A DNA stretch of 64,000 nt from Methanocaldococcus sp. 16A (GTDB taxonomy: Archaea; AGJL01; Methanococci; Methanococcales; Methanocaldococcaceae). Below are positions 34,813 to 49,531 of the stretch, in pieces. The notes under the pieces were generated by a model that saw only the letters and a program-made list of their open reading frames with translations, ran no database searches and was not told the DNA's origin. The stretch lies in the NCBI GenBank assembly GCA_049860595.1, contig CP187551.1, one strand, 5' to 3'. Both the position numbers and the translations under genes were made by a program. How positions within the stretch are numbered: the stretch's first letter is position 1; the number at the start of each line of letters is the position of its first letter.

Positions 34813-36159
34813 ATGAGAATATTACAAGTTGTTCATGGATTTCCTCCAAAGCAGAGGGCCGGAACAGAAATGTATACTTATTATCTATCAAAAGAATTAG
34901 CTAAAAAACATGAAGTTCATGTTTTTTATCCCACGCGGGATAAAGGTAAAAAATCAATTACAATACATTCCTTTGAAAGAGAAAAATTACACTTACATGA
35001 GTTAGTTATACCTAATGATTTTATATGGAAGATAAAGAGGTTCTGGGATTTGTTATTAATTAAAAATACTTATATAAACAAAAGTGTTGAAGGGATATTC
35101 AGAACCCTTTTGAGAAGGATAAAGCCAGACATAATCCATTTTGAGCATTTAATTGGGTTATCTACCACTTTAATAAATATTGCTAAAGAAGAATTTAACA
35201 TTCCAATTGTCCTTACACTACATGATTATTGGTTTATGTGCCCAAATATTCAATTAATTACATATGAACATATAATCTGTAAAGAGCCAGATCCAAGCAA
35301 ATGTCGTGAGTGTTGGGTTAAAAATCGGGCAAAAGATATTTCCAAAGCATTAGGAGTGTATTATATTCCAAAATCTTTAACAGAAAGACCATTAGAGATA
35401 GTTTTGAAGATATTCAATCATCCAGAAAAATTTGAAAAAAGAAACAAATATCTCAAGTCTTTGCTTTTAAAGGCGGATAAAATTATATCCCCTTCTAAAT
35501 TTTTGAGAGAAACATTCATTAGATATGGAATCTCAGAAGATAAGATAATATACTCTGAAAATGGATATAACTTAGAAGTTTTTAAGGGATTTAAGAAAAA
35601 AAAGAATAGTACTAATAAAATTATTTTTGGGTTTGCTGGAAATGTTATTCCAATTAAAGGGGTTCATGTTTTAGTGGATGCATTTTTAAAAGTGCCAGAA
35701 GAAAAAGCAGAACTGAGAATATATGGATATTACAATCCTAAGTCGGAATATGTGAAAAAAATTTTAACAAAAGCAAAAAGAAAGAAAAACATAAAATTTA
35801 TGGGAAGGTTTGAAGATATAAAAGAGCCATATTCGGGGATTGATGTTCTTATATTTCCCTCTATATGGTACGAAAACTGTCCTTTAGTTTTGGCAGAAGC
35901 ACGAGCTACTAAAACACCAGTTATAGCATCTAACTTAGGAGCAATTCCAGAATTTGTAAAACATGGAAAAACAGGTTTATTATTCGAACCAAATAATCCA
36001 GAAGATTTGTATGAAAAAATTATGCAAATTATTCAAAATCCTAAACTGATAGAAAAGTTTAAAGCAAACATAAAACTACCAAGAAGTATTGAAGAGCAAG
36101 CCAAAGAAATCGAAGAGATATATAAATCACTTATGAGGTGTTATCATGAAAACCGATAA
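34813..36159 (+). CDS. GT4 glycosyltransferase with a Cys-rich insertion
   Basis: HGFPP..AGTE, TLHDYWFMCP, KGVHVL, PSIWYENCPLVLAEA. Confidence 0.88.
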   Translation: MRILQVVHGFPPKQRAGTEMYTYYLSKELAKKHEVHVFYPTRDKGKKSITIHSFEREKLHLHELVIPNDFIWKIKRFWDLLLIKNTYINKSVEGIFRTLLRRIKPDIIHFEHLIGLSTTLINIAKEEFNIPIVLTLHDYWFMCPNIQLITYEHIICKEPDPSKCRECWVKNRAKDISKALGVYYIPKSLTERPLEIVLKIFNHPEKFEKRNKYLKSLLLKADKIISPSKFLRETFIRYGISEDKIIYSENGYNLEVFKGFKKKKNSTNKIIFGFAGNVIPIKGVHVLVDAFLKVPEEKAELRIYGYYNPKSEYVKKILTKAKRKKNIKFMGRFEDIKEPYSGIDVLIFPSIWYENCPLVLAEARATKTPVIASNLGAIPEFVKHGKTGLLFEPNNPEDLYEKIMQIIQNPKLIEKFKANIKLPRSIEEQAKEIEEIYKSLMRCYHENR

Positions 36160-37087
36160 ATTTCAAACTGCTCTTAAGAAATATTTTGATAAATATAAAA
36201 CTCATCCCAGATATGAATTTTGGATTAAAGATCACCTATGGAAAGTAGGCATTCCCAATTCTGAGGTGCTAGATTATATTTATAATATTGTAGAATATAT
36301 TCATAAAAACTACCTATCCTCTTTTAAAAAAAATGAGATTAAAATCTTAGATCTTGGTTGTGGTATGGGTGAGTTTGCAGTATTCTTATCCTTATCAGGC
36401 TATTATGTTGTTGGAGTTGACATGGATAAAGAACAACTAAAAATAGCAAAAATTCTTAAAGAAGAAAATAAAGCTAAAGTTGAGTTTATTAATACTGATG
36501 CAACGAAATTACCATTCAAAGATGAAGAATTCGATATTATTATCTGTTTTGATGTTTTTGAGCATGTAGATGATTTGCAACCCATATGTAACGAAATGTG
36601 GAGGATATTAAAGAACGATGGAGTAATTTTTCTCAGATTTCCAAACAAATTAAAAGGCTATGAAGATCATGTCGGTCTACCTTTACTTCCTTTACTCCCG
36701 GAAAGAATCTTTCAATTTGTTTTTAGAAAAATAATAAAAAGTCGAAAATATTACCAAGAGGGTCTATATGTCTATTATAGAAGATTCTCAGAAGTTTATC
36801 AAGTATTAACGGCTGCAAATTTTCACATTTCTCAGCTACCCGAACATTTAATGTTTCCTCGATTACCTAGAATGTACAAACGATTGATTCGAAATAACGT
36901 TCAATACATACCAATAATCTCACCATATTTTCATTTTTTGCTTACAAAGAAACCTGTTGATAGTTCATTACAAAATCTAGATATAAGGAAAATAAAATTA
37001 TTCGAGTTCATATGGTGGTTCTTCGTTTTGATCATTTCCATTGCTAGTGTTTTTAAAAATACAATATCCAAAAAGAACAGGAGGTAA
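36146..37087 (+). CDS. Class I SAM-dependent methyltransferase
   Basis: ILDLGCGMG, VGVD, DATKLPFKDEEFD, DVFEHV. Confidence 0.88.
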   Translation: MKTDKFQTALKKYFDKYKTHPRYEFWIKDHLWKVGIPNSEVLDYIYNIVEYIHKNYLSSFKKNEIKILDLGCGMGEFAVFLSLSGYYVVGVDMDKEQLKIAKILKEENKAKVEFINTDATKLPFKDEEFDIIICFDVFEHVDDLQPICNEMWRILKNDGVIFLRFPNKLKGYEDHVGLPLLPLLPERIFQFVFRKIIKSRKYYQEGLYVYYRRFSEVYQVLTAANFHISQLPEHLMFPRLPRMYKRLIRNNVQYIPIISPYFHFLLTKKPVDSSLQNLDIRKIKLFEFIWWFFVLIISIASVFKNTISKKNRR

Positions 37088-37091
37088 CAAA

Positions 37092-38681
37092 ATGTCACCA
37101 AAAGTTCTAGTTATTGGTTTAGATGGAGCAACATGGAATCTAATCAAACCTTGGACTGATAAAGGAGAATTACCAACATTTAAAAAACTAATGGAAAATG
37201 GAGTTTGGGGTAATTTGGAATCCACGATTCCGCCTTGGACTATTCCTGCCTGGGAATCCATGAGTACTGGAAAGAATCCAAAAAAACTGGGTTTTGCTAC
37301 ATTTATGGTGAAAGACGGCTACAAATTCGTCCCTCATAACTTCAAGCACAAACGACAAAAAATGATATGGGATATTCTATCTGACTCCAATTATAATGTT
37401 GTTGTAGCTAATTTGCCGAATATTTACGTAGCTCAAAAAATTAATGGATGCATGATTGCTGGATGGCTTTGCTTGGATAAGAATCGTATTACGTATCCTC
37501 CTAATCTAATCAATGAACTAAATGAGCATTGCAATGGATATGAAATTGATATTTTTGATGTTGATTTTGAGAATGGTCGAATAACTGATGGTCCTGGAGA
37601 TAATGAATACTTAAAACGCTGTGAAGAGTTATTAGAAAAACATTTTTTTGCCTTTACATACCTACTGAAGAAATATATGTGGGATTTTGGATTTATTGTG
37701 TTTGTAACCCCTGACAGAATTCAACATAAATACTGGAATAGTAATATTTTACTTGAACATTACAAGAAGATAGATTCAAAATTGAAAGAATTACTTGACA
37801 AAATAAATGATGAAACTATCATTTTTTTAGTTTCAGATCATGGATTCGGATGTGTTAAATACATACTTAACATAAATGAATTCCTTATAAAAGAGGGTTA
37901 TCTAAAATTAAAAAAACCACCAAAACAAATGTTATCTAGGCTATTCACCATTATAAAGGAGAGTACACTGCTGCCTATTGCAAAAGCTCTTGTTAATCGA
38001 CTGCCTCACACTATAGCCAAATACTTGAAGAAAAAAGCATCACCTATAAGCTTTGAAAAAATGGATATAGATTGGAGTTACACAAAAGCCTTTGCATATG
38101 GTGTTTTTGGAGATGTATATCTAAATGTTAAAGGAAGAGAACCAAATGGTATTGTAGATCCTGATGAATATGATAAAGTACGAGAAGAAATTATTGAAAA
38201 GATAAAAAACATAGAATATAAAGGGAAAAAACTAAACATACAAATTTTTAAAAAAGAAGAAGTTTATCCAAATGCTACTTTATGGGATAATCTTCCAGAT
38301 TTAGTAATAGTACCTACTGATGATGGCATACATGCAATAAATCCGAACATTGGAAGCGGTAAGATAATAACAGAATCAAACGGATCTAATGGAGATCACA
38401 GACTTTATGGTATCTTCCTTGCTTATGGCCCAGGAATTAAGAAGGGTTACAAAATAGAAAATGTTAAAGTTTATGATATAGCGCCAACAATCCTCCATAT
38501 CTTCAGCTTACCAATCCCAAATGATATGGACGGAAAAGTGTTAACGAATATATTTGAAAAAGACTCGGAATTTGCAAAGAAAGAGATTAAATATGTGGAT
38601 ACAAGTTATTACGAGAAAAAACAAGAAGATGAAAAACTCAAAAAAGCTATTAAAAACCTAAGGCTCAAAGGAAAAATCTAA
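37092..38681 (+). CDS. AlkP-superfamily protein (phosphodiesterase/NPP-like, COG3379 type)
   Basis: GLDGA, STIPPWTIPAW (Thr nucleophile), DRIQHKYW, SDHG, GDH, DIAPTIL. No signal peptide. ATG 37092 after a GGAGGT RBS. Confidence 0.85.
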   Translation: MSPKVLVIGLDGATWNLIKPWTDKGELPTFKKLMENGVWGNLESTIPPWTIPAWESMSTGKNPKKLGFATFMVKDGYKFVPHNFKHKRQKMIWDILSDSNYNVVVANLPNIYVAQKINGCMIAGWLCLDKNRITYPPNLINELNEHCNGYEIDIFDVDFENGRITDGPGDNEYLKRCEELLEKHFFAFTYLLKKYMWDFGFIVFVTPDRIQHKYWNSNILLEHYKKIDSKLKELLDKINDETIIFLVSDHGFGCVKYILNINEFLIKEGYLKLKKPPKQMLSRLFTIIKESTLLPIAKALVNRLPHTIAKYLKKKASPISFEKMDIDWSYTKAFAYGVFGDVYLNVKGREPNGIVDPDEYDKVREEIIEKIKNIEYKGKKLNIQIFKKEEVYPNATLWDNLPDLVIVPTDDGIHAINPNIGSGKIITESNGSNGDHRLYGIFLAYGPGIKKGYKIENVKVYDIAPTILHIFSLPIPNDMDGKVLTNIFEKDSEFAKKEIKYVDTSYYEKKQEDEKLKKAIKNLRLKGKI

Positions 38682-40087
38682 AACTTCTTGTCAAGTATTG
38701 TTCTCAATTTCTTCCTTTCATCTTCTTTAAGCATTTTATTTAACTTGTCCACGAATATTGATGTAACCTCCTTATCTGTTATTGGATGCTGTTCAAAAGG
38801 GTCTTTCTTGAGGTCAAAGAGCCACTGGACGCCATCATCTGGAGCGTAGAGGAGCTTGTACCTCCCCAGAATTAAGACCTTCTTCTCATACCCATAACCA
38901 GCCGCCTCGGAGAGCAAAGGCCTTTTCTTGTTATTAACCTCAAAAAGATTCTGTCCATCAAAAGTTAAATTATGAGAAACACCCAGCAGATCCAAAATTG
39001 TAGGCATAACATCAACGGAACTAACCCTGTTTTCAGTAAAATCACCTTTTTTCTTAATAGCTCCATCAAATAAAACCGGCACCTCAATAATCTCATTGAA
39101 AACATTATGCCCATGCCCCACACCGTAATAACCTCTAGGATCATAGAAATTATCAGCCTCAAGTTTTGCATGCTCCCAGAACTCCTCGCCATGATCCGAT
39201 GTAATCAAGAGAATTGTAGAATTCAACAAGCCAGAGTCTTCAAGAAATGCATAAAAACTCTCTATAGCGTAATCAACGTATCTAAGTGTATTGTTATAAA
39301 GCAACATTCTATTTCTTCTATATTTCTCAAATTCTTTTCCTTTTTGTTCTTCAGGCCTTCTGAAATCCCACCGCTCAATATTTGGAATATTCCCCACTTG
39401 TCCAAAGTAATTCCTAAACTTTTCTGGCGGTACTATGGGCTCATGAACATCTCCAAGGTGCAGATATACAAAGAAGGAGTTTTTTCTTTTTGATATCCAT
39501 TTTCTCAGGTCATTCAGTAGTTCTTCAGCGAGAGTATCTCCAAGATAGAACTTGGGGACAACCCTACTTTTCAAAGGGTAGCTTGCAACATCAATCGCTG
39601 TTCCAAAGTATATCTCATATCCAAGTGCAAAGAGTATTTCGGGCAGAGTCAGCACACTTTTCTTAATTGGCTTAAATGCTTTAAGAATATCTAAATTTTT
39701 TATCTTGCTGTGAATATAGGCGTTGTGGTTGTGGGGGTAAAGACCTGTTAAAATCGACGCTACTGAAGGATATGTCCATGGTGCAGCTGAAATTGCTCTA
39801 AACTTTGCCTTCAGAGAATCCATGAAGGGCGTTGTTTCTCTTTGATACCCAGTAAATGAGAGGTTGGAATAGCGGAGGCAGTCCACTGTTAGAATAATCA
39901 CATTCAAGTCGGGCTTATTTGAAGTGTCAATATACTCGTCAAAATTTATGTTTTTGATCCTCGAATAGAGATCCTTTTTAGCTTTTCTCCCTTGATACTG
40001 GTTGTAAACTCTAAGTGCAAGCCTTTTTGTGGTATCATTCCGTTTAACAATACTCTTGGCAATAGTGGTTATATACTTAAATACCAT
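38678..40087 (-). CDS. Sulfatase-like AlkP-superfamily hydrolase/transferase lacking the formylglycine motif
   Basis: TVDCLR, APWTYPSVASILTGLYP (Thr where C/S-x-P-x-R is expected), DVHEP, SDHGE, GHGH. Start at ATG 40087 after GGAGGGAG. Confidence 0.82.
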   Translation of the reverse strand: MVFKYITTIAKSIVKRNDTTKRLALRVYNQYQGRKAKKDLYSRIKNINFDEYIDTSNKPDLNVIILTVDCLRYSNLSFTGYQRETTPFMDSLKAKFRAISAAPWTYPSVASILTGLYPHNHNAYIHSKIKNLDILKAFKPIKKSVLTLPEILFALGYEIYFGTAIDVASYPLKSRVVPKFYLGDTLAEELLNDLRKWISKRKNSFFVYLHLGDVHEPIVPPEKFRNYFGQVGNIPNIERWDFRRPEEQKGKEFEKYRRNRMLLYNNTLRYVDYAIESFYAFLEDSGLLNSTILLITSDHGEEFWEHAKLEADNFYDPRGYYGVGHGHNVFNEIIEVPVLFDGAIKKKGDFTENRVSSVDVMPTILDLLGVSHNLTFDGQNLFEVNNKKRPLLSEAAGYGYEKKVLILGRYKLLYAPDDGVQWLFDLKKDPFEQHPITDKEVTSIFVDKLNKMLKEDERKKLRTILDKKF

Positions 40088-40110
40088 AGCACTCCCTCCA
40101 TTTTTCCCTT

Positions 40111-41637
40111 TCAAACAAACTTCCTTAAAATTTTCTTTATTATCTTTAAATCAACCTCCAATTTCTTCTCTATCTCCAAAAACAGCTTAACGTCCTCTTT
40201 ATCAACACTTCTACTAAGCAAAACCAAGAAGAAGTAAACTCCCAAAAACACTGTAAGGACAGGAATTGCATACCATATGCTTGGTACTTTCAGGTGCAAG
40301 CTCTGAATTAGTCCCAATAGAACAAAACTTATTACCAAAGGCTTCACGTAATTCCAGCTGAAGGGATGAATTTTAGTCTCCTTATAGAGCTTTAGCGAGT
40401 TTAGAACATTTCCAACAAAGTAAGATATAGCGGTAGCTATTGCAGCTCCCTCCATACCATAAATCGGAATTAAGAAAGTATTTAGTATAACATTAAAGAC
40501 TGCAGAAACTAGACCTGATACCATAATAAATTTGCTTTTTCCGATCACAAGGAGACTCAGTCCGTTTAATCCTAAGAAAGTGTGAAACATAAAACCCATA
40601 GCCAAGATTTGAAGCGCTTTACATGCTTCCAAATACTTTTCTCCGAAGAAAAATCCAATTGTAGCCTCTGGGAAGAGAAACATTAAAATAAACAAAGGTA
40701 ATGTGACAAAAAATATCCACTTTGTTAATACTTGATAAACCCTACTCATTTCTTTAATTTTTCCCTGAGCATAGAGAGCTGTAGCTAAGGGAGGGTAGAT
40801 GAAACCAGCAGAATATAAAACTATAGGTAAAAGCTTTGCTAATGGAGCTGCAGCATTGTATAATCCAACAGCTTCTGAAGTTTTATAGTATCCAAGCATC
40901 AAAGTATCTGTCCATGTCATTATAAATCCAGCAATTCCTGTAAACATCAGAGGAATCGAAAATCTTATCAATTCTTTTCCTAATTTTAAATTGATAGAAT
41001 CAAGTTTAAACAATCCTCGTCTAAACACATTTATAACTAATGCAAAGAACGTAATAACTTGAGCTATTAAATATGCTACAAAAATGTAATAAAACTCTAC
41101 TTTCATAATAACTCCAATTCCTATAAAAGAAAACCATAGAAGTGGATACAATATATTCTGAAAATAAACTTTTTCCCTAACTCTTCCGAATCCTTGAGAA
41201 ATTGATATAAAAGTACCTGTTAAAGCCAAAAAAGGAAGTGCAAGCGATATTAACTTCAAAGCATAAGTCAATCGTTCTTCATTGAATATCTGAGCAAGAT
41301 AAGCAGACCCAAAAATCAGAAATGCTGTAAAAGCTAAACTTGTTAATAATATAATTATTAAAGCAGTTGATATTAAAGATCCTATTTTTGAAGGTTCTTT
41401 TTCCTTATAAAAAGCAATTTCCCTTGGAAGAGAATTTGGAAATCCAAGCGTAGCAATTATAATAGCTATATTGAGAATTGTCAAGGCTAAGTTATAAACT
41501 CCATATTCAGCAGTAGAAAAATACCTTGCTATAATTACCACGCTTAAAAACCCAAAGAACATTGAAATGATTGTCCCCACAAATACTATTCCAGCTCCTC
41601 TCGCAATTCCATGCAGAACTTTATTAACTTCACTCAA
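40111..41637 (-). CDS. Oligosaccharide flippase (Wzx/MOP superfamily)
   Basis: About 14 TM segments; ARYFSTAEYGVY, WTDTLMLGYY, VGLYNAA, LIPIYGMEGAAIAT. Confidence 0.9.
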   Translation of the reverse strand: MSEVNKVLHGIARGAGIVFVGTIISMFFGFLSVVIIARYFSTAEYGVYNLALTILNIAIIIATLGFPNSLPREIAFYKEKEPSKIGSLISTALIIILLTSLAFTAFLIFGSAYLAQIFNEERLTYALKLISLALPFLALTGTFISISQGFGRVREKVYFQNILYPLLWFSFIGIGVIMKVEFYYIFVAYLIAQVITFFALVINVFRRGLFKLDSINLKLGKELIRFSIPLMFTGIAGFIMTWTDTLMLGYYKTSEAVGLYNAAAPLAKLLPIVLYSAGFIYPPLATALYAQGKIKEMSRVYQVLTKWIFFVTLPLFILMFLFPEATIGFFFGEKYLEACKALQILAMGFMFHTFLGLNGLSLLVIGKSKFIMVSGLVSAVFNVILNTFLIPIYGMEGAAIATAISYFVGNVLNSLKLYKETKIHPFSWNYVKPLVISFVLLGLIQSLHLKVPSIWYAIPVLTVFLGVYFFLVLLSRSVDKEDVKLFLEIEKKLEVDLKIIKKILRKFV

Positions 41638-41701
41638 TATTTCCCAACCTCTTAATAATTTTAACTAAAAATTAAGTATCCAATTTATAAATACTTTATC
41701 C

Positions 41702-42081
41702 GAGTGTGTCTAAAATCGAGTAATATTTATATATTAATATAATAACGAAATAAAAAAATATGGTAGCAAAAAGATGGGATACGAGAATATATGATATAAA
41801 CGAGATATTGGAGGTTTTTGATGACGTTATGGGGAGTATAAAATTACCTAAGGAATTAAAGCCAAGAAAATATTGTATCGAACTACTACTTAAAGTTTCT
41901 GTTATTAAGGAGTTTTTAGGAGTATCGTTAAGAGCTATGGAAATCTTGACAGAGGTGTTTTTTGGAGCTAAAATTGACCATTCAGTAATCTATTACTGGG
42001 AAAAGAAACTAAATAACTATATTATATCGATAGTAAATCAAATTCTTAGGAAACTATGGAGTTTCTATCTTAGACATACTC
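41702..42081 (+). mobile_element. Internally deleted IS (probably IS5/IS4-like DDE), 380 bp, non-autonomous
   Basis: Left TIR GAGTGTGTCTAAAATCGA versus right TIR (reverse complement) GAGTATGTCTAAGATAGA, 15/18 match. TCC flanks both ends (41699-41701, 42082-42084). Confidence 0.8.
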
Positions 42082-42113
42082 TCCGTAAAAAATATATACC
42101 TAATGCAATTTAA
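41760..42113 (+). pseudogene. Truncated transposase, N-terminal HTH only
   Basis: SLRAMEIL...IDHSVIYYWEKKL resembles a transposase N-terminal HTH. The ORF runs through the right TIR and has no DDE domain. Confidence 0.7.
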
Positions 42114-42146
42114 TTAAATATCATTAAATATAATTAAGGTGAAAAG

Positions 42147-42374
42147 ATGTCAGATGAGAGGAAATATACTACTGTTTCAATACCAATCCAACTTTATGAA
42201 AAGATTAAAAAAAGAATTGAAGGTACTGGATTTACATCTGTCTCAGATTATGTAACCTATGTTTTGAGGGAAGTTTTAGCAAGTTTAGAAGAGGAAGAGA
42301 AAGAAGAAGTATTTAGTGAGGAGGAAGAGGAGAAGGTTAAAGAGAGATTAAGAGCATTAGGATATTTAGACTAA
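42147..42374 (+). CDS. CopG/ribbon-helix-helix protein with an acidic linker and RLRALGYLD tail
   Basis: YTTVSIP...GFTSVSDYVTYVLRE RHH pattern; GGTGA RBS. Confidence 0.85.
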   Translation: MSDERKYTTVSIPIQLYEKIKKRIEGTGFTSVSDYVTYVLREVLASLEEEEKEEVFSEEEEEKVKERLRALGYLD

Positions 42375-42437
42375 TAGATTTTTTGCATATTTTTTATTTT
42401 TAATTAAACTTAATTAAATATCATTATGGTGATAATA

Positions 42438-43586
42438 ATGGTCTCAAAGCCACATGGAGGAAAATTAGTTAGAAAATTATTATCTGAGAAAAGTAAAGAG
42501 AGAATTTTAGAAGAAAAAGATGAATATCAAAAAATAAGTATTAGGGAAGGAACTGCAATAGACATTGAAAATATTGCACATGGAATATACTCCCCACTTG
42601 AAGGGTTTTTAAGAGAAGAAGAATTTCAACATGTTTTAGATAATATGAGATTGCCTGATGATTTACCATGGAGCATTCCTATAGTTTTAGATGTAAAAGA
42701 AGAGGATTTAAAATTTGATGTTGGAGATGAAATCCTTTTATATCATGGAGATATTCCAGTTGCAGTTATGAATGTTGATGATATCTACAAATATGATAAG
42801 AAAGAATTTGCTCAAAAAGTCTTTAAAACAACAGATATAGATCATCCTGGAGTAGCAAAAGTTTATAATATGAATGAATATCTTGTTGGTGGAGAGATTA
42901 GACTTTTAAATGAATTGCCTAACCCCTTTGAAAAATACACCTTAAGACCAATAGAAACAAGAGTGTTATTTAAAGAGAGAAAATTTGAAACTATTGTAGC
43001 ATTTCAAACGAGGAATGTTCCTCATTTAGGGCATGAATATTTACAAAAATCTGCATTAACCTTTGTTGATGGATTGTTTATAAACCCAGTTTTAGGAAAG
43101 AAAAAGAAAGGCGATTATAAAGATGAAGTTATTTTGAAAGCATATGAAACATTATTTAAGCACTACTATCCAAAGGATTCAGCAGTTTTGGCAACAGTTA
43201 GATATGAGATGAGATATGCCGGGCCAAGAGAAGCAATACACCACGCAATAATGAGGAAGAATTTTGGATGCACACACTTTATTGTTGGAAGAGACCATGC
43301 AGGGGTTGGAAATTATTACGGTCCTTACGAAGCACAAGAAATATTTAAAAACTTCCCTGATTTGGGAATAACGCCAATGTTCTTTAAAGAATTCTTCTAT
43401 TGTAAGAAATGTAAAGGAATAGTAAATGAAAGAATCTGTCCTCACCCAATGGAAGATAGAGAATATTTCAGTGGAACTAAAATCAGAAATATGATTGTTA
43501 ATGGTGAAATACCTCCAGAATACTTCATGAGAAAAGAGGTTTATGAAACAATAATGAGTTTTGAAAACCCATTTGTGGATGGTTAA
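42438..43586 (+). CDS. sat: Sulfate adenylyltransferase (ATP sulfurylase)
   Basis: PHGGKL, AFQTRNVPHLGHE, YAGPREA, VGRDHAG, SGTKIR. Confidence 0.95.
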   Translation: MVSKPHGGKLVRKLLSEKSKERILEEKDEYQKISIREGTAIDIENIAHGIYSPLEGFLREEEFQHVLDNMRLPDDLPWSIPIVLDVKEEDLKFDVGDEILLYHGDIPVAVMNVDDIYKYDKKEFAQKVFKTTDIDHPGVAKVYNMNEYLVGGEIRLLNELPNPFEKYTLRPIETRVLFKERKFETIVAFQTRNVPHLGHEYLQKSALTFVDGLFINPVLGKKKKGDYKDEVILKAYETLFKHYYPKDSAVLATVRYEMRYAGPREAIHHAIMRKNFGCTHFIVGRDHAGVGNYYGPYEAQEIFKNFPDLGITPMFFKEFFYCKKCKGIVNERICPHPMEDREYFSGTKIRNMIVNGEIPPEYFMRKEVYETIMSFENPFVDG

Positions 43587-43587
43587 T

Positions 43588-44520
43588 ATGCTAATAATTC
43601 ACCATTGGGATACTGATGGAATAACTTCAGCAGCTTTAACAGTTAAAGCTTTAAATTTAGAGGATTTTATAAATGTAATTCCACCAATTGGTGAGTTTAG
43701 ATTTGATGAAAGAATATGGAAAAAAATTGAACAGGCAGAAAAAGTTTATGTTTTGGATTTAAATCTCCCGCAAGAAGTAGAAAATATTAACAAGGAAACA
43801 ATATTCATCGATCATCACATACAAAAAAGGATTGAAAATCCAAATGTTAAGCAAATAAATCCAGTTTTAGAAGGTAAAAATTTTCCATCTGCATCTTTTG
43901 TGGTTTCAGATTATTTCTCATACTGGAACTGTTTATCTGCACTTGGAGCTGTGGGGGATATTGGAGAGAAGGCATTTAACATTTCAAAAGTTAAAAAACT
44001 TCTGAATTTGGAAGAAATTGATAGGGAAGATGCATTAAAATTGGTTCAATTGATTGATTCAAATTATATTGTAATGGAAAGAGATGAGGTTGAAAATGCC
44101 GTGAAAGTTATTTTAAACTTAGAGCCAAAAGAACTTTTAGAGTATGAAAAATGGAATAAGAATCTTGAAAAAATCAATGATGCAATAGAAGATGCAATTT
44201 CAAATATAATAGTTAAAAATGGAATCGCATTTATTAAATTTGAGAGTAAATTTAACATTATCTCAAAAGTTGCAAGGAAAGTCGTTTGGAAAATGGGTTA
44301 TGATGGAGCAGTAGTTGTAAATGAAGATTTTAACGGAAAAGCACAGATATATTTCAGAATTTCATCTAATTTAACTGACAAAATAAAGATGGCTGAACTT
44401 ATCCAAACATTAAAAGACAAAAATTACAACGCTGGTGGGAAGAAGGATGTCTTAGGATGTATTTTGGAAAAAAGTGATGTTGATGATGTTTTGAAAATTA
44501 TTAATACATATTTAAGGTGA
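43588..44520 (+). CDS. DHH-family phosphoesterase, likely PAP phosphatase
   Basis: HHWDTDG, LDL, IDHH, GAVGD, NAGG; located between sat and cysC. Confidence 0.8.
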   Translation: MLIIHHWDTDGITSAALTVKALNLEDFINVIPPIGEFRFDERIWKKIEQAEKVYVLDLNLPQEVENINKETIFIDHHIQKRIENPNVKQINPVLEGKNFPSASFVVSDYFSYWNCLSALGAVGDIGEKAFNISKVKKLLNLEEIDREDALKLVQLIDSNYIVMERDEVENAVKVILNLEPKELLEYEKWNKNLEKINDAIEDAISNIIVKNGIAFIKFESKFNIISKVARKVVWKMGYDGAVVVNEDFNGKAQIYFRISSNLTDKIKMAELIQTLKDKNYNAGGKKDVLGCILEKSDVDDVLKIINTYLR

Positions 44521-44524
44521 TAGA

Positions 44525-45916
44525 ATGGAGAATGTAAAAAAAGCATTTGTTATTGGCTTAGATTCTGCACCTCCAGAACTTTTATTTGATAAGTTATTAG
44601 ATAAATTGCCAAACATAAAAAAACTTTTAGAGAAATCAATATATGGCCCTATGAAAAGTTGTATTCCTGCTATAACCATTCCTGCCTGGATGGTGATGGC
44701 TACTGGTAAAACTCCAGGAGAATTAGGGCTTTATGGATTTAGGCATAGAAAAAAAGGAACTTATAATGATATTTGGATTGCTCACAGTTTGATGGTTAAA
44801 GAAAAAGCAGTATGGGATTATTTAGGGGAAGTAGGGAAAAAATCAATCTTAGTTGGCGTTCCTCCAAGTTATCCTCCAAAGCCTATTAAAGGACATTTGA
44901 TTTCTTGCTTTATAACCCCTGATGCATCAGTTAATTACACTTACCCAAAATCTCTCAAAAGTGAAATAGAAAACCTCGTTGGAGAGTATATATTTGACGT
45001 GGTTTTTAGGAAGGACAATAGAGATGAGGTAAAAGAATTACTTTGGGAGATGACTGAGAAGAGGTTTGAAGTTATAAGATACCTAATTCAAGAAAAAGAT
45101 TGGGACTATTTCCAATTTGTTGAAATTGGTTTGGATAGAGTCCATCATGCATTCTGGAAGTATTTTGATGAAAATCATCATTTATATCCAGGGGATGACA
45201 ATCCCTACAAAAATGTTATTCCGGATTATTACAAACTTCTCGATAAGGAAATTGGAAAAACTTTAAAATTATTAGATTTGGATGAAACCGCTGTTATTAT
45301 CGTTTCAGACCATGGTATAAAGGCGATGAAAGGGGCTTTTGCAATAAACCAGTGGTTGATTGAGGAAGGGTTATTAAAGATTAAAAATCCAGAGATTTTA
45401 GAATCTGGAAAACAGGTGAGATTTGAAGATTTGGATGTGGATTGGAAGAATACAATAGCATGGGCTTGGGGAGGTTATTACGCAAGAATCTTCCTCAATG
45501 TTGAGGGAAGAGAACCAAATGGTATAATAAAACCAGAAGATTACCATAAAGTTAGAGATGAAGTTGCTGAAATTATTAGAAGCATTAGGGGGCCAAATGG
45601 AGAGAGATGGGATACTAAGGTGTTCTATCCAGAGGATATATATCCAGAAACAAATGGAGATAAGCCAGATATGATGGTTTATTTAGACAATTTGTGTTGG
45701 AGGTCTGCTGGAACTTTGGGTTATGATAGCCCATATCTTTTAGAGAATGATACAGGGCCTGATGATGCGGTTCATTCTGAATATGGGGTATTTTCTATTT
45801 ATTTACCAGGAATGGAGGAAAGTAAGCAAATTACCTCAACTATTTATGACTTTGCTCCTACGGTTTTAAAGCTCTTTGGGATAGAAAAAAATCTTAGGGG
45901 GAGAAGTATAGTATGA
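44525..45916 (+). CDS. AlkP-superfamily protein (COG3379 type) within the sat-cysC operon
   Basis: GLDSA, SCIPAITIPAW (Thr nucleophile), DRVHHAFW, SDHG, GPDDAVH, DFAPTVL. No signal peptide. Confidence 0.85.
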   Translation: MENVKKAFVIGLDSAPPELLFDKLLDKLPNIKKLLEKSIYGPMKSCIPAITIPAWMVMATGKTPGELGLYGFRHRKKGTYNDIWIAHSLMVKEKAVWDYLGEVGKKSILVGVPPSYPPKPIKGHLISCFITPDASVNYTYPKSLKSEIENLVGEYIFDVVFRKDNRDEVKELLWEMTEKRFEVIRYLIQEKDWDYFQFVEIGLDRVHHAFWKYFDENHHLYPGDDNPYKNVIPDYYKLLDKEIGKTLKLLDLDETAVIIVSDHGIKAMKGAFAINQWLIEEGLLKIKNPEILESGKQVRFEDLDVDWKNTIAWAWGGYYARIFLNVEGREPNGIIKPEDYHKVRDEVAEIIRSIRGPNGERWDTKVFYPEDIYPETNGDKPDMMVYLDNLCWRSAGTLGYDSPYLLENDTGPDDAVHSEYGVFSIYLPGMEESKQITSTIYDFAPTVLKLFGIEKNLRGRSIV

Positions 45917-46452
45917 AGCAGGAAAAATCTTATATGGGATTTACAATCTGGCTCACAGGTCCTAGTGGTGCTGGAAAAACCACATTAGCTAATGCTTTAA
46001 AGAAAAAACTTAAAGAAATGGGTTACAAAGTTGAGATCTTAGATGGAGATGAAATAAGAAATTCCCTATATCCAAATTTGGGGTTTAGTAAAGAGGCAAG
46101 AGAGATGCATAATAAAGTAGTTATTCACATGGCTAAATTGTTATCAAGAAATGGAGTAATTGCAATAGTCTCTCTAATTTCTCCCTACAAATCTGTTAGG
46201 GAGTATGCGAGAAAAGAGATTGGGAGATTTATGGAGGTTTATGTTTATGCTCCTTTAGAGGAAAGAATTAAAAGAGACCCAAAAGGACTTTATGCTAAGG
46301 CATTGAAAGGAGAAATAAAAGGATTAACTGGCTATGATGGAGTTTATGAAGAGCCAGATAATCCAGAAGTTAAAGTTGACACTTCCAAAATGAGTGTTGA
46401 TGAGGAAGTTGAAATAGTAATCAAAAAGGCAAAGGAATTAAATTATCTTTAA
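45913..46452 (+). CDS. cysC: Adenylyl-sulfate (APS) kinase
   Basis: WLTGPSGAGKTT, LDGDEIR, LGFSKEAR, ISPY, RDPKGLY, YEEP. Confidence 0.95.
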   Translation: MKQEKSYMGFTIWLTGPSGAGKTTLANALKKKLKEMGYKVEILDGDEIRNSLYPNLGFSKEAREMHNKVVIHMAKLLSRNGVIAIVSLISPYKSVREYARKEIGRFMEVYVYAPLEERIKRDPKGLYAKALKGEIKGLTGYDGVYEEPDNPEVKVDTSKMSVDEEVEIVIKKAKELNYL

Positions 46453-46453
46453 A

Positions 46454-47212
46454 GTGAGCCCTATGGAATTCATATTTATAATTCTTGGGTTTGTTGTTGG
46501 GTTTCTTGTGGGTTTAACTGGAATTGGGGGAGGCGTTTTAATGACTCCTTTATTAATATTTTTGGGAGTGGAACCTCTTATAGCAGTTGGGACTGATTTA
46601 CTGTATGCTGCAATAACCAAGATTGTAGGGGCTATTTTACACAATAAAAAAGGGAATATAAATATTAACATTGCTCTAAAATTATTCTTAGGGAGTTTAC
46701 CAGCTATAATAGTTGGTTCTATAGTTTTAAGGTTGGTTGATAGAGTGGAGATAAACAATTTTTTAACAATAATACTTGGTGTAATTTTAATAATCACTTC
46801 TATTATAAATTTGAAAGGACGATTTGTAAAAAAAATATGCTTTAGTTCATCTGTTTTAGTGTTCTTTGGATTTTTAGTAGGTTTGATAGTCCAATTTACA
46901 TCAGTTGGTAGTGGTGTTTTAGTAACTCTTGCATTAACGAATTTCACAAAACTTTTACCAAGATCTGTTGTTGGAACAAGTATTTTCTATGGCCTCTTAT
47001 TAACTTCGCTCAGTACTTTGAGCCATATAAGTTTGGGAAATGTTGATTACAGTTTAGCTTTATCGCTAATACTTGGAACCATTCCTGGAGTTTATGTTGG
47101 GACCTATGTGAATTCTAACATCCCACAGGACAAACTTAGGAAATTTATTAATTTGATAATTTTATTTATGGGAATTTATATTTTAGAATGTAACCTATTA
47201 AAATTTGTTTAA
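46454..47212 (+). CDS. TauE/SafE (TSUP) sulfur-oxyanion transporter
   Basis: GLTGIGGGVLMTP, AVGTDL, TSVGSG, GTIPGVYVG. Confidence 0.88.
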   Translation: MSPMEFIFIILGFVVGFLVGLTGIGGGVLMTPLLIFLGVEPLIAVGTDLLYAAITKIVGAILHNKKGNININIALKLFLGSLPAIIVGSIVLRLVDRVEINNFLTIILGVILIITSIINLKGRFVKKICFSSSVLVFFGFLVGLIVQFTSVGSGVLVTLALTNFTKLLPRSVVGTSIFYGLLLTSLSTLSHISLGNVDYSLALSLILGTIPGVYVGTYVNSNIPQDKLRKFINLIILFMGIYILECNLLKFV

Positions 47213-47326: not shown

Positions 47327-48382
47327 TTATAAAATTCTTTTTATAGCATTCCAAATTAAGAAAGATTGAGGCTTTAAACTTCCATCTATTGGATTTAAAA
47401 ACAATATATTTTTTTTAATTAAGAATTCTTTGGTGTCCTCATCAATCAAGTATTCGTCAATTGTGTAGGTATCTTTGAATAAAGAAAGTGCTTTAACAAC
47501 GTTATCATAGGATATATTTTCAAACTTGTTATTTTTTATTTTTATAAGTAATTTCTTTATCTTTGATTTTTCTATGTTTAACATCGTCTCTAAAATTTCT
47601 TTAAGCTTATTATATCTCATTTTATCTATAACTTTTAAAATTAAAATGGGCTTTCCCCCCACATAAGAGTAAATTAACTCTTTCTCTTCGTTAGAGAGAT
47701 TTCTATTTAACAACTCTTTAGCTAAGATATCCATAAACTTAAAAGCAGTCTCTCTATCGAAATCATCCACCAAAATATAATCAGCTCTATCATTGAGCAT
47801 TGCCTCATTATAAACCTTCTCAATAAATAAGCTATCAGAGCTTAAACAGAAAACATGGCATAGATGTTTGTGCTTAGTTAAAGAGATGAAGTAGTTAAAA
47901 AGTTCATATATTAAAAATCCATTAATTTTCATGTCACCAATTTTTTGTAATTCGTCGAGGATAATAACTGGCTGTTTGCCTTGCTTTTTTAACTCTAACA
48001 AAATATTAGTTATATATTTGAAAACATTTTTAGTTGTTTTTTTATTTAACAACTCATTTAACGTATTTTTAGGTACAGGAATGCCACTAACAACAGGAAT
48101 ATCTTTAATTAGCCCTTTAATAATCTCTAATGGTTTTTTATCTCCGCTGTATTCTTCAAACAACACCTCTATAAACTCCTCATATTTTGATAAAAATATC
48201 TCCCTCAAATCAAAATAAAAAACTATATACCTATTTTTATCCAACCTGTTGTTAATTATCTCATTAATTAATGCTGTCTTTCCACTGTTTATAGGGCCAA
48301 ATATAAAGTAAATAAAATTAGGCTCCCCTTCTATAATAGATAAAATTTCTTTTATTTCCTTTTCTCTATCAAAGAATTTCAT
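47327..48382 (-). CDS. Archaeal ATPase (ATPase_2, MJ-type P-loop)
   Basis: [37 protein letters not shown]. Confidence 0.88.
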
Positions 48383-48396
48383 TTTTAACACCCTAA

Positions 48397-49494
48397 TTAA
48401 AGTATTTCTTTTATAGCGTTCCAAACTAAGAAAGACTGAGGTTTTAAACTTCCTTCAATAGGATTCAAAAATAAAATATTTCTTTTAATTAAGAACTCTC
48501 TAATTTTTTTAGGTATTTTTATATCTTCAATTTTATACTCTTTCTTAAATAAACTTAAATTATCAACAACCTTTTTATAGAGTTCTTCATCTTCTTCTTT
48601 AACATCTTCTAAGAAGTATTTTAATTTCTGAATTTCTTCTTTTAACATTAAATCTAAAATTTCTTTTAACTCTTTAAATTTCCTTTCTTCAACAACATAC
48701 TTTATATCCTTTGCTTTTCCACCTACATAAGAATAGATTAATTCTTTATCCTCATTAGTCAAGTTTATATTATTTTCTTTAGCTAAAAAATCCATAAACT
48801 TTAGAGCTTTATCTTTAGAGAAATCATCTACTAAAACATATTTAGCTCTACCCTCCAACATTGCCTCATTATAAACTCTCTCAATAAATAAACTATCTGA
48901 ACTTAAACAAAAAACATAAGCTACATGTAACTCTTTAGTTAATCTAACAAAAAAGTTAAAAAGTTTATAAATTAAAAATCCATTAATCTTCAAATCACCA
49001 ATAACTTGCAATTCGTCTATAATTAAAATAGATTTTTTGCCTTTTTTATTTATTTCAATAAAATACTCTTCTAAGAATTCAAAAATATCCTCTATATTGT
49101 CTTTTTTCAACAATAGTTGTGTTAATAAATTTTTAGGTATTGGTATTCCGCTAACAACTCCTCCTGATAACTTAGATATTATAGTTGATTTTATAACCTC
49201 TGGAAGGTCTTTTACTAAAGACAATAGAGCAGTTTTTATCTTATCAATCAAAGATTCCTCATAAACATTAAATAAAACCTTTAAAAACTTATCATAATCA
49301 TCAATAAACCTTCCCCTAAGATTTATATAAAATACTACATACTTATTTTTATCTAACCTATTGTTAATTATCTCATTAATTAAGGCAGTTTTACCACTAT
49401 TTAATGGACCATAAATAAAATAAATATCATCCGATTCCTTATTTAAAATATGCAATATCTCATCAATTTCTTTTTCTCTATCAAAAAGTTTCAT
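48397..49494 (-). CDS. Archaeal ATPase (ATPase_2, MJ-type), tandem paralog
   Basis: [44 protein letters not shown]. Confidence 0.88.
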
Positions 49495-49531
49495 TAGATT
49501 CACCATTTAATAACCTTCAAAACTTATTTTC

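Follow-up and report, generated by a model that had tools for sequence, protein, structure and literature searches.

What do archaea that cannot live on sulfate do with the enzymes of sulfate activation? This question, which concerns the purpose of sat (ATP sulfurylase), cysC (the kinase of adenosine 5'-phosphosulfate, APS) and the phosphatase of 3'-phosphoadenosine 5'-phosphate (PAP), was asked for Pyrococcus by Jin 2021 (PMC8268124) and for methanogens by Jespersen 2023 (PMC10322725), and it is raised again by a locus of Methanocaldococcus sp. 16A. We analyzed a stretch of 64,000 nucleotides (the window, from whose first letter positions are counted), which corresponds to G000:C1:96001-160000 of a 1.62-Mb, 99.98%-complete genome with a G+C content of about 29%. 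The window contains a tightly packed operon of a ribbon-helix-helix (RHH)-like open reading frame (ORF), sat, a DHH-family gene, a gene of the alkaline phosphatase (AlkP) superfamily that we call AlkP-C, cysC and a TauE-type permease gene; two further AlkP-fold genes, AlkP-A and AlkP-B, lie next to it.

The best single explanation of this locus, to which we would give an even chance on comparative grounds, is a self-contained glycan-sulfation unit in which AlkP-C would be the sulfotransferase that uses 3'-phosphoadenosine 5'-phosphosulfate (PAPS), the product of CysC. This role is suggested by a place in the cassette that AlkP-C shares with P-loop sulfotransferases and AprAB-like reductases, by the many genomes in which it is the sole candidate for that task and by the precedent of Agl30 and Agl31, two AlkP-superfamily proteins of Halobacterium salinarum. 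AlkP-C is a concrete and testable candidate, and a common one, being present in 61 of 121 sampled Thermococci genomes. The initial annotation of the window had gone further and proposed that all three AlkP proteins are PAPS-dependent sulfotransferases, a proposal to which comparative genomics lends partial support.

The sulfate-activation cassette and its AlkP-C gene

Gene identities were taken from Pfam model matches of the 20 ORFs scanned between 28893 and 52378, with some NCBIfam models in addition, and the genes named in the initial annotation were all found in place with Pfam, subject to what is said below of the RHH gene. ATP sulfurylase (Sat; 42426-43586, + strand) matches PF01747 with 308.3 bits together with PUA_2 and exceeds the cut-off of NF003166 with 548.5 bits. 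It is followed by the DHH/DHHA1 phosphoesterase (43561-44520, + strand; PF01368 and PF02272) and by AlkP-C (44525-45916, + strand; PF01663, 162.6 bits), the candidate non-canonical sulfotransferase, a soluble protein of the nucleotide pyrophosphatase/phosphodiesterase (NPP) type. The APS kinase CysC (45913-46452, + strand; PF01583, 197 bits) exceeds the cut-off of TIGR00455 with 226 bits, and its first 4 nt coincide with the last 4 nt of AlkP-C. We take the DHH protein as a putative archaeal PAP phosphatase since its position in the cassette equals that of the characterized P. yayanosii pApase (PMC8268124) and of the M. thermolithotrophicus PAP phosphatase (PAPP; PMC10322725).

The cassette itself is already known. 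Jin 2021 described copG-sat-pApase(DHH)-type I phosphodiesterase/nucleotide pyrophosphatase-APS kinase with an adjacent TauE gene in P. yayanosii and other archaea, characterized the DHH enzyme as a pAp phosphatase and, in the sections available to us, detected neither a sulfotransferase nor a sulfite route in the organism studied (PMC8268124). Gene content and order are the same here, and the P. yayanosii-named relative of AlkP-C (P0016) is 83% identical to it; the full order copG-sat-DHH-NPP-cysC-TauE is found in the window and equally in L008, L009, L015, L027, L052 and L170-L173. Unlike the cluster of Jin 2021, the present cassette belongs to a methanogen and lies inside a glycan island with two further AlkP-fold genes.

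To see what AlkP-C is tied to, we compared 80 AlkP-C loci of species-representative genomes, which cover at least nine lineage groups, eight of them archaeal and one bacterial. Both flanks are available at 58 loci, and these divide into 34 where AlkP-C is preceded by sat and followed by cysC, all on one strand, 8 with sat only, 10 with cysC only and 6 with neither. Of the loci that lack a neighbor, L025 and L071 hold the missing gene slightly further off and the flank of L010 is marginal. AlkP-C thus adjoins sat and/or cysC in 52/58 loci, and in five genomes where neighbors were missing both genes are present elsewhere (5/5). The DHH gene stands directly upstream of AlkP-C in 22 of the 65 loci with room for it. 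The gap between sat and AlkP-C is -14 to 39 nt in 27/28 junctions (the ORF call of the remaining one overlaps by 184 nt), and the commonest overlap between AlkP-C and cysC is 4 nt. Relatives of AlkP-C are 70-95% identical among the 120 matches listed, and those named come from Methanocaldococcus, Methanotorris, Pyrococcus, Thermococcus, Archaeoglobus, Geoglobus, Asgard and Korarchaeum. Compared with one Thermococcus locus, AlkP-C is 86%, cysC 83%, sat 73%, DHH 64% and TauE 57% identical; among the cassette genes AlkP-C is the best conserved and evolves most slowly. On a quick maximum-likelihood tree a long, fully supported branch parts 72 AlkP-C-type rows from 15 paralogues, a split that is partly circular since the groups were set by identity to AlkP-C. 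The AlkP-C rows have short tips and intermixed phyla, as expected for a mobile cassette.

The association extends to gene fusion. Proteins of at least 812 aa that match AlkP-C at E<=1e-30 form 169 clusters, and in all 120 clusters listed of these 169 we found PUA_2, ATP-sulfurylase and PF01663 domains in one chain; P0252 was confirmed as such a fusion. SDHG is kept in 120/120 and GFRxR in 114/120 of the Sat-AlkP-C fusions, and the 12 commonest motif variants, which cover 80 of the 114 fusions with GFRxR, all retain Thr. A single AlkP-C-CysC fusion (L086) runs into the end of its contig. Natural fusions of AlkP-C with each of the two activation enzymes therefore exist.

These ties also bring in the main rival explanation, in which AlkP-C is a hydrolase serving PAPS synthesis, that is, an AlkP-fold inorganic (or nucleotide) pyrophosphatase that removes the pyrophosphate (PPi) released by Sat and so pulls the unfavorable formation of APS. 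Alkaline phosphatases hydrolyze PPi, and fusions of APS kinase, ATP sulfurylase and a pyrophosphatase occur in some eukaryotes. The position of AlkP-C directly after sat wherever DHH is absent, the short junctions and the 169 clusters of fusions would all suit such a helper, as would a conservation as strong as that of Sat and CysC across domains and the eight loci, six of them from Bathyarchaeia, in which sat-AlkP-C has no cysC within 700 nt downstream. A role in PPi degradation was what Jin 2021 speculated for this gene (PYCH_17550; PMC8268124). We nevertheless consider the pyrophosphatase explanation unlikely, if serious, and the comparative data point to a consumer role of AlkP-C over the helper role. 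One reason is the fusion with CysC in L086. Another is the behavior of AlkP-C in broken-up cassettes, where it stays with PAPS/PAP genes or with sugar genes and not with sat. Archaeoglobaceae, which account for 9 of the 10 cysC-only loci, have DHH-AlkP-C-cysC or AlkP-C-cysC alone without an adjacent sat (Geoglobus loci retain sat). Four bacterial genomes (G001-G004) carry AlkP-C followed by a short-chain dehydrogenase/reductase (SDR) gene and two UDP-glucose dehydrogenase genes where relatives have sat-AlkP-C-cysC-SDR, and the sat-cysC pair is on another contig; two of these loci are titled Aminicenantes (L064, L073) and two Eubacteriales (L057, L062), and all four form one AlkP-C clade. Cassettes without AlkP-C are moreover common (5/11 Methanococci). 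The M. thermolithotrophicus arrangement names no such gene; Jespersen 2023 assigns PPi removal to a separate protein and never mentions "alkaline phosphatase" (PMC10322725).

Co-occurrence with PAPS synthesis and alternative consumers

The genomes behind all counts, above and below, are related and their cassettes move together, and independent events are far fewer than genomes. Among 121 sampled Thermococci genomes AlkP-C is found in 61, cysC in 65 and both in 59, so that AlkP-C is present in 59/65 cysC-positive and 2/56 cysC-negative genomes, both exceptions lying on short contigs. Sat and cysC occur together in 11 of 40 Methanococci genomes, and AlkP-C in 6/11 of these against 0/29 of the others. 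Relatives of AlkP-A (37-80% identity) were detected in 16/121 Thermococci genomes, all 16 positive for cysC, and relatives of AlkP-B in 15/121, all 15 positive for both cysC and AlkP-C, compared with a base rate of 65/121 for cysC. The co-occurrence that the initial annotation suggested checking is seen here, all three AlkP families being tied to PAPS synthesis at the genome level. All five assembled AlkP-C-positive Methanococci cassettes have a second AlkP-fold gene nearby (AlkP-A-like, or PF00884 in G019), and four also a Wzx flippase gene. Two other functions of AlkP-C were rejected: a second PAP phosphatase, given that it co-occurs with the DHH enzyme in 22/65 loci and that DHH-only cassettes exist, and a general phosphosugar mutase, which would not be limited to cysC-positive genomes.

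What stands in the cassette when AlkP-C is missing is informative. P-loop PAPS sulfotransferases (PF00685 and PF13469), which have an unrelated fold, occupy the same niche beside or inside the sat-DHH-cysC cassette of relatives. They are present in 18 of the 121 Thermococci, all cysC-positive, and in six Methanococci, all among the 11 with sat and cysC. These 11 genomes comprise four with AlkP-C only, two with AlkP-C and a P-loop sulfotransferase, four with the sulfotransferase only and one with neither. The PF00685 gene is at most 2.5 kb from the cassette, among glycosyltransferase genes, in G008, G011 and G021, and elsewhere in the genome in G009. In three of the six cysC-positive Thermococci without AlkP-C (G051, G061 and G099) a PF00685/PF13469 protein of 183-186 aa, above the cut-off of PF00685, is encoded exactly between DHH and cysC, which is the slot of AlkP-C, so that a P-loop sulfotransferase takes its place there. 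The Methanococci genome with neither (G042) has an AprAB-type pair, a FAD-flavoprotein and a ferredoxin, directly behind sat-DHH-cysC-TauE. The same consumer place is held by three kinds of gene: AlkP-C, a P-loop sulfotransferase or an AprAB-like reductase. The short PF00685/PF13469 family, seen at L180 9173-9724, L183 3860-4420 (- strand) and L181 69-620, could represent minimal sulfotransferases.

The anti-correlation with Pfam sulfotransferases that the initial annotation had predicted holds in part. With both classes pooled, a P-loop sulfotransferase is found in 7/11 cysC-positive genomes without AlkP-C and in 17/65 with it (Fisher p = 0.03, kinship uncorrected); counting G099, whose gene came from closer inspection than the AlkP-C-positive genomes received, the first figure is 8/11 (p = 0.004). 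Taken by themselves, the Thermococci show no significant contrast (p = 0.34), and 17 genomes (2 Methanococci and 15 Thermococci) hold both enzymes. There is no PF00685/PF13469 match in 44 of the 59 Thermococci with AlkP-C and cysC, and 23 of the 59 additionally lack AlkP-A and AlkP-B. In many genomes AlkP-C is the sole candidate for using PAPS and yielding the PAP that the DHH enzyme would remove. The pyrophosphatase explanation would have those 23 genomes make PAPS and recycle PAP in the absence of any consumer, and as a helper function it does not predict that AlkP-C tends to be lost where PAPS has another consumer; under it, true sulfation would fall to AlkP-A, AlkP-B, P-loop enzymes or something unrecognized. 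In the present genome we found no match to PF00685, PF13469, PF03567, PF09037 or PF17784, the last three being weak blanks that control genomes gave as well. None of AlkP-A, AlkP-B and AlkP-C belongs to the P-loop group, with no PF00685/PF13469 match in the 20 scanned ORFs.

A reductase could also be the consumer. The initial annotation had noted the absence of APS or PAPS reductase, sulfite reductase and P-loop sulfotransferase from the window, which is correct for the window; elsewhere the genome has two genes of the PAPS-reductase family PF01507 (199 and 187 bits), which could in principle use PAPS, and an Fsr-like NIR_SIR gene of 629 aa. The cassette might then feed assimilatory sulfate reduction, with PAPS passing to the PF01507 homologues and on to the Fsr-like sulfite reductase, and the AlkP proteins would have no part in it, acting instead on phospho-esters within the glycan island. 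Reduction of APS and PAPS has been reported for the M. jannaschii homologues of the PF01507 pair (cited in PMC10322725), and the cassette of G042 matches the reductive arrangement of M. thermolithotrophicus, which uses ATP sulfurylase (ATPS), APS kinase (APSK), a DHH-type PAPP and an APS-reductase-like PAPS reductase (PMC10322725). The window shares Sat, CysC and DHH with that operon but differs in having AlkP-C and no AprAB-like pair; in the operon the consumer is the reductase and, as far as the available sections go, there is no AlkP gene. Against assimilation, the same two PF01507 genes are present in 5/5 relatives without sat and cysC, and NCBIfam names the pair only as hypothetical equivalogs, below the cysH cut-offs. 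M. infernus, which has ATPS, APSK, PAPP, both reductase homologues and Fsr, does not grow on sulfate, and for other methanogens with ATPS/APSK/PAPP Jespersen 2023 proposes a "non-canonical sulfo-transferase" (PMC10322725). The fusions and the strict limit of all three AlkP families to cysC-positive genomes are also left unexplained, and we regard assimilation as very improbable.

AlkP proteins, their precedent and the proposed route

None of the three AlkP proteins has a 19-residue stretch with a Kyte-Doolittle mean of at least 1.6. By this measure they lack membrane segments and also, as the initial annotation had stated, signal-peptide-like starts. Each is encoded by a single-copy gene. AlkP-A (ORF 37041-38681, probable start 37092, + strand; PF01663, 150.5 bits) is NPP-type and COG3379-like and carries GLDG, PPWTIPAW and DRIQH, while AlkP-C carries GLDS, PAITIPAW with Thr51, GFRHR, DRVHH and His417; both pass the PF01663 gathering cut-off of 23 bits. 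AlkP-B (38678-40114, - strand; PF00884, 135.9 bits) is of sulfatase fold and carries PWTYPSV. SDHG is common to all three. In AlkP-C, D13, T51, D204, H208, D262, H263 and H417 are invariant in 10/10 sequences spanning several phyla, as is the G-F-R-H-R stretch beside the active site. Thr51 falls on the nucleophilic Thr of Xanthomonas NPP (2gsn) and of the phosphonoacetate hydrolase PhnA (3szy) in weak profile matches (E 0.055 and 0.12), and the Asn that contacts a phosphoryl oxygen in NPP aligns beside the invariant F-R-H-R. These PF01663 enzymes share the T-x-P Thr motif and the D...H and (S)DHG metal-ligand motifs with AlkP-C; they differ from it in that its sequence similarity to any solved structure is marginal (0.055 is the best E-value, with a profile) and that AlkP-C is cytoplasmic and set among PAPS genes. 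A phmmer search of the PDB with AlkP-C gave nothing at E<=0.01, and an ESM Atlas search gave PF01663 clusters only.

Threonine had been put forward as a special feature of all three proteins. It is the ordinary nucleophile of PF01663 enzymes, and for AlkP-A and AlkP-C it is therefore no special pointer to transfer. The claim stands for AlkP-B, where Thr114 (WTYPSV) aligns to the Cys/Ser that is turned into formylglycine in the sulfatases 3ed4 and 6bia and is invariant in 14/14 aligned relatives; the Arg of C/S-x-P-x-R is replaced by Val, the aligned stretch being T-Y-P-S-V. We rejected AlkP-B as a true formylglycine sulfatase, since despite the sulfatase fold the C/S-x-P-x-R motif is absent.

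AlkP-A and AlkP-B above all lend themselves to another explanation, in which the AlkP proteins are phosphotransferases or phosphodiesterases that add or trim phosphoglycerol, phosphoethanolamine and the like, as soluble cousins of LtaS and EptA, and the link with cysC reflects a shared mobile island. A Thr nucleophile is typical of phospho-transfer in the AlkP superfamily. AlkP-B is weakly similar to the EptA and LtaS models (E 1e-8 and 2e-7), at 30-34 bits against cut-offs of 561-970, and the hydropathy scan shows neither in it nor in AlkP-A a membrane domain of the kind that LtaS and EptA possess. For the wider AlkP-B family, sat and cysC are missing from the surroundings at all 80 metagenome loci (34 loci are at least 10 kb long, and most members are 26-39% identical); pairs of AlkP-A- and AlkP-B-type genes beside flippases occur without PAPS genes in L101, L103 and L160; and G014, a genome only 85% complete, has an AlkP-A-like gene without sat or cysC. 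The 16/16 and 15/15 association of AlkP-A and AlkP-B relatives with cysC in Thermococci argues the other way, as does the island, where no donor-synthesis genes such as those of CDP-alcohol enzymes were seen among the scanned ORFs. We judge phospho-transfer improbable, also in view of the sulfatase-like proteins Agl30 and Agl31 that are able to sulfate (PMC11980604).

Zaretsky 2025 found by deletion and heterologous expression that the AlkP-superfamily proteins Agl30 (VNG1056C) and Agl31 (VNG1057C) of Halobacterium salinarum sulfate a lipid-linked N-glycan (PMC11980604). Both have an alkaline-phosphatase-like core with a sulfatase-like fold as in AlkP-B, are encoded in a glycosylation cluster in a host in which, from the sections available to us, no canonical sulfotransferase is recognized, as here, and one of them is soluble (PMC11980604). 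The AlkP genes of the window likewise encode proteins with an alkaline-phosphatase-like core in a glycosylation gene cluster. The differences are that one Agl protein is membrane-bound and that AlkP-A and AlkP-C are NPP-type PF01663 proteins, likened to the sulfatase-like Agl30 and Agl31 by fold and context; the text of Zaretsky 2025 mentions neither PAPS nor a donor, threonine or a nucleophile (PMC11980604). In earlier work Agl7 was needed for the sulfation of dolichyl phosphate (DolP)-hexose (Kaminski 2013, PMC3892788). AlkP-fold glycan sulfotransferases of archaea are thus already known, and our literature search found no report that gives the NPP-type cassette gene, or PF01663, a sulfotransferase role. 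New as far as searched are the NPP-type cassette gene and AlkP-A/AlkP-B as candidates for PAPS-linked sulfotransferases, with comparative evidence.

In the route that we propose, the TauE permease would bring sulfate in, and Sat and CysC, whose family assignments are secure, would make APS and PAPS. AlkP-C, a predicted cytoplasmic two-metal protein of NPP fold with Thr51 in the nucleophile position and an invariant Arg-His-Arg cluster adjacent to it, would move the sulfuryl group from PAPS (or, less likely, from APS) to a sugar hydroxyl, either directly or through a covalent Thr-O-sulfate enzyme. The DHH enzyme would clear the PAP by-product, as its homologues do in the two papers on the Pyrococcus and methanogen enzymes. 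AlkP-A and AlkP-B, which evolve much faster, may be further PAPS-dependent AlkP-fold transferases that act on other positions of the same glycan. The neighboring family 4 and family 2 glycosyltransferases (GT4 and GT2) would assemble this glycan on a carrier lipid on the cytoplasmic side of the membrane, the methyltransferase anchored by its tail would methylate it and the Wzx-type flippase would export it. Sulfation at the cytoplasmic face is suggested by the soluble enzymes, the tail anchor of the methyltransferase, the flippase and the halobacterial work. Since no other gene of the cassette evolves as slowly as AlkP-C, the acceptor on which it would act is probably widespread, for example a first lipid-linked sugar or a nucleotide sugar, and not a strain-specific glycan end.

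More widely, AlkP-C could stand for an unrecognized family of NPP/alkaline-phosphatase-fold sulfotransferases that uses PAPS, or APS delivered by a Sat fused to it or encoded next to it, forms a sulfo-threonine intermediate and is the conserved end of a mobile cassette, a fuller statement that we hold tentatively and rate somewhat short of an even chance. The cassette ranges over roughly one half of the Thermococci species sampled, several Methanocaldococcus, Archaeoglobi, Asgard, Bathyarchaeia, DPANN and bacteria (Aminicenantes), and the Sat fusions include Anaerolineae.

Besides the relatedness of the genomes counted, the partial anti-correlation, the Thr default of PF01663, the reductase-like genes and the metagenome loci of the AlkP-B family, several points weigh against sulfation by AlkP-C. 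Its position between sat and cysC, the Sat fusions and a conservation at or above that of Sat (86% vs 73%) are what one would expect of a helper of PAPS synthesis such as a pyrophosphatase. Known glycan sulfotransferases are usually fast-diverging, and NPP chemistry normally targets phosphorus, so that on APS or PAPS it would free sulfate. The oligosaccharyltransferase gene AglB is far off, at C1:1536174, and the glycan need not be an N-glycan, given this distance from the island. The literature search found, in the sections available, no report of sulfated glycans in Methanocaldococcus or Thermococcales.

If AlkP-C is a sulfotransferase, it would add a third structural solution for biological sulfation to the P-loop and arylsulfate sulfotransferases, and the chemistry of the alkaline-phosphatase superfamily would extend from the hydrolysis of sulfate esters to PAPS-driven sulfuryl transfer. 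Sulfated surface glycans would then be expected across many hyperthermophiles, so far unseen sulfated glycans or lipids would be made by many of the anaerobic archaea that lack sulfate assimilation, and the AlkP-A- and AlkP-B-type enzymes would be fast-evolving, acceptor-specific cousins of AlkP-C. If AlkP-C is instead a dedicated pyrophosphatase, the function would be smaller yet new, and the search for the missing sulfotransferase would narrow to the AlkP-A and AlkP-B families.

Glycan genes and other features of the locus

The surroundings of the operon are rich in glycan genes. Upstream on the + strand are a GT4 glycosyltransferase (34813-36159; PF00534, 116.8 bits, and PF13439) and a S-adenosylmethionine-dependent methyltransferase (36146-37087; PF08241, 91.6 bits), whose single C-terminal hydrophobic segment (residues ~282-300, hydropathy maximum of 2.26 at residue 285) suggests that it is probably tail-anchored to the membrane. 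The Wzx/MOP-type flippase (40111-41637, - strand; PF01943, 119.6 bits) has 13 hydrophobic segments and is divergent from the sulfate-activation operon; its relatives adjoin the cassette in L170, L172 and L173. Two further GT4 genes, a DUF2206 membrane protein, a GT2 gene and genes of RmlA/B/D type are nearby. Matches to sugar-nucleotide, glycosyltransferase and flippase genes in this genome are concentrated at C1:112-191 kb, around the locus, and the description of a "glycosylation island" is a fair one. Across the 80 AlkP-C loci, the families most often found as neighbors, cassette genes aside, are SDR epimerase/dehydratases at 27, sugar-1-phosphate nucleotidyltransferases at 16 and UDP-glucose dehydrogenases at 12, with Wzx flippases, GT2, GT4, RmlC, DegT and GlmS less frequent. 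When only loci with at least eight ORFs are considered, 44/62 carry a sugar-nucleotide, glycosyltransferase or flippase gene, and this is seen in all nine lineage groups; a rough baseline, taken from the present genome only, is 12/80 windows of 20 kb. A dTDP-glucose 4,6-dehydratase-type gene beside the cassette of a Thermococcaceae locus (L019 9289-11808) carries an intein with a LAGLIDADG domain, and an 836-aa ORF of G019 (L172 1927-4437) matches RmlB over part of its length only.

The AlkP-A-like/AlkP-B-like adjacent pair recurs. It is convergent in the window and at G143:C1:837961-840919, G129:C11:688982-691929 and G155:C47:291785-294737, and on the same strand in the three metagenome contigs L101, L103 and L160; the two proteins may work together. 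AlkP-B relatives are broken by stop codons at G129:C11:688982-690358, G155:C47:291785-293196 and G142:C99:3195-3755, and the system seems to decay as well as spread. The G+C content is 0.36 at 38000-40000 (AlkP-B) and 0.25-0.31 in the flanks, AlkP-B is 91% identical to a Pyrococcus abyssi protein and AlkP-C clusters with Thermococcus sequences on the tree, which together suggests recent gene transfer between Thermococcales and this methanogen. At one Bathyarchaeota locus a PF00884 sulfatase-fold gene (L053 7278-8408) lies directly upstream of sat-AlkP-C-cysC and has cluster mates in Nitrososphaerales and Micrarchaeota loci (L085, L087).

At the two ends of the operon are a candidate regulator and the permease. 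The first gene is a 75-aa ORF (42147-42374, + strand), a candidate RHH/CopG-like regulator. It has no Pfam RHH match; its similarity to the RHH portion of the NikR model is weak (E 0.0067), and two ORFs in the equivalent place of other loci show such a weak match too. An ORF 95-99% identical to it precedes sat in L170-L173, and its positional equivalent in P. yayanosii is named copG (PMC8268124). The last gene encodes the TauE/TSUP-family anion permease (46454-47212, + strand; PF01925, 159.5 bits, 8 hydrophobic segments), which may import sulfate and follows cysC in 10-11 of 80 related loci. A SulP/STAS sulfate permease (L182 2133-3872) lies directly upstream of an RHH-sat-DHH-cysC cassette without TauE, which fits TauE as the sulfate importer elsewhere.

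Between the flippase and the RHH-like gene a 117-aa ORF (41760-42113, + strand) matches no Pfam or NCBIfam family and was rejected as the RHH gene and as part of the system. The equivalent spacer in L172 is only about 110 nt long and lacks this ORF, which is possibly an insertion remnant. Between the sulfate operon and the rml genes lie two tandem PF01637/MJ1010-like archaeal ATPase genes (47327-49506, - strand), and relatives of these adjoin the cassette in L173.

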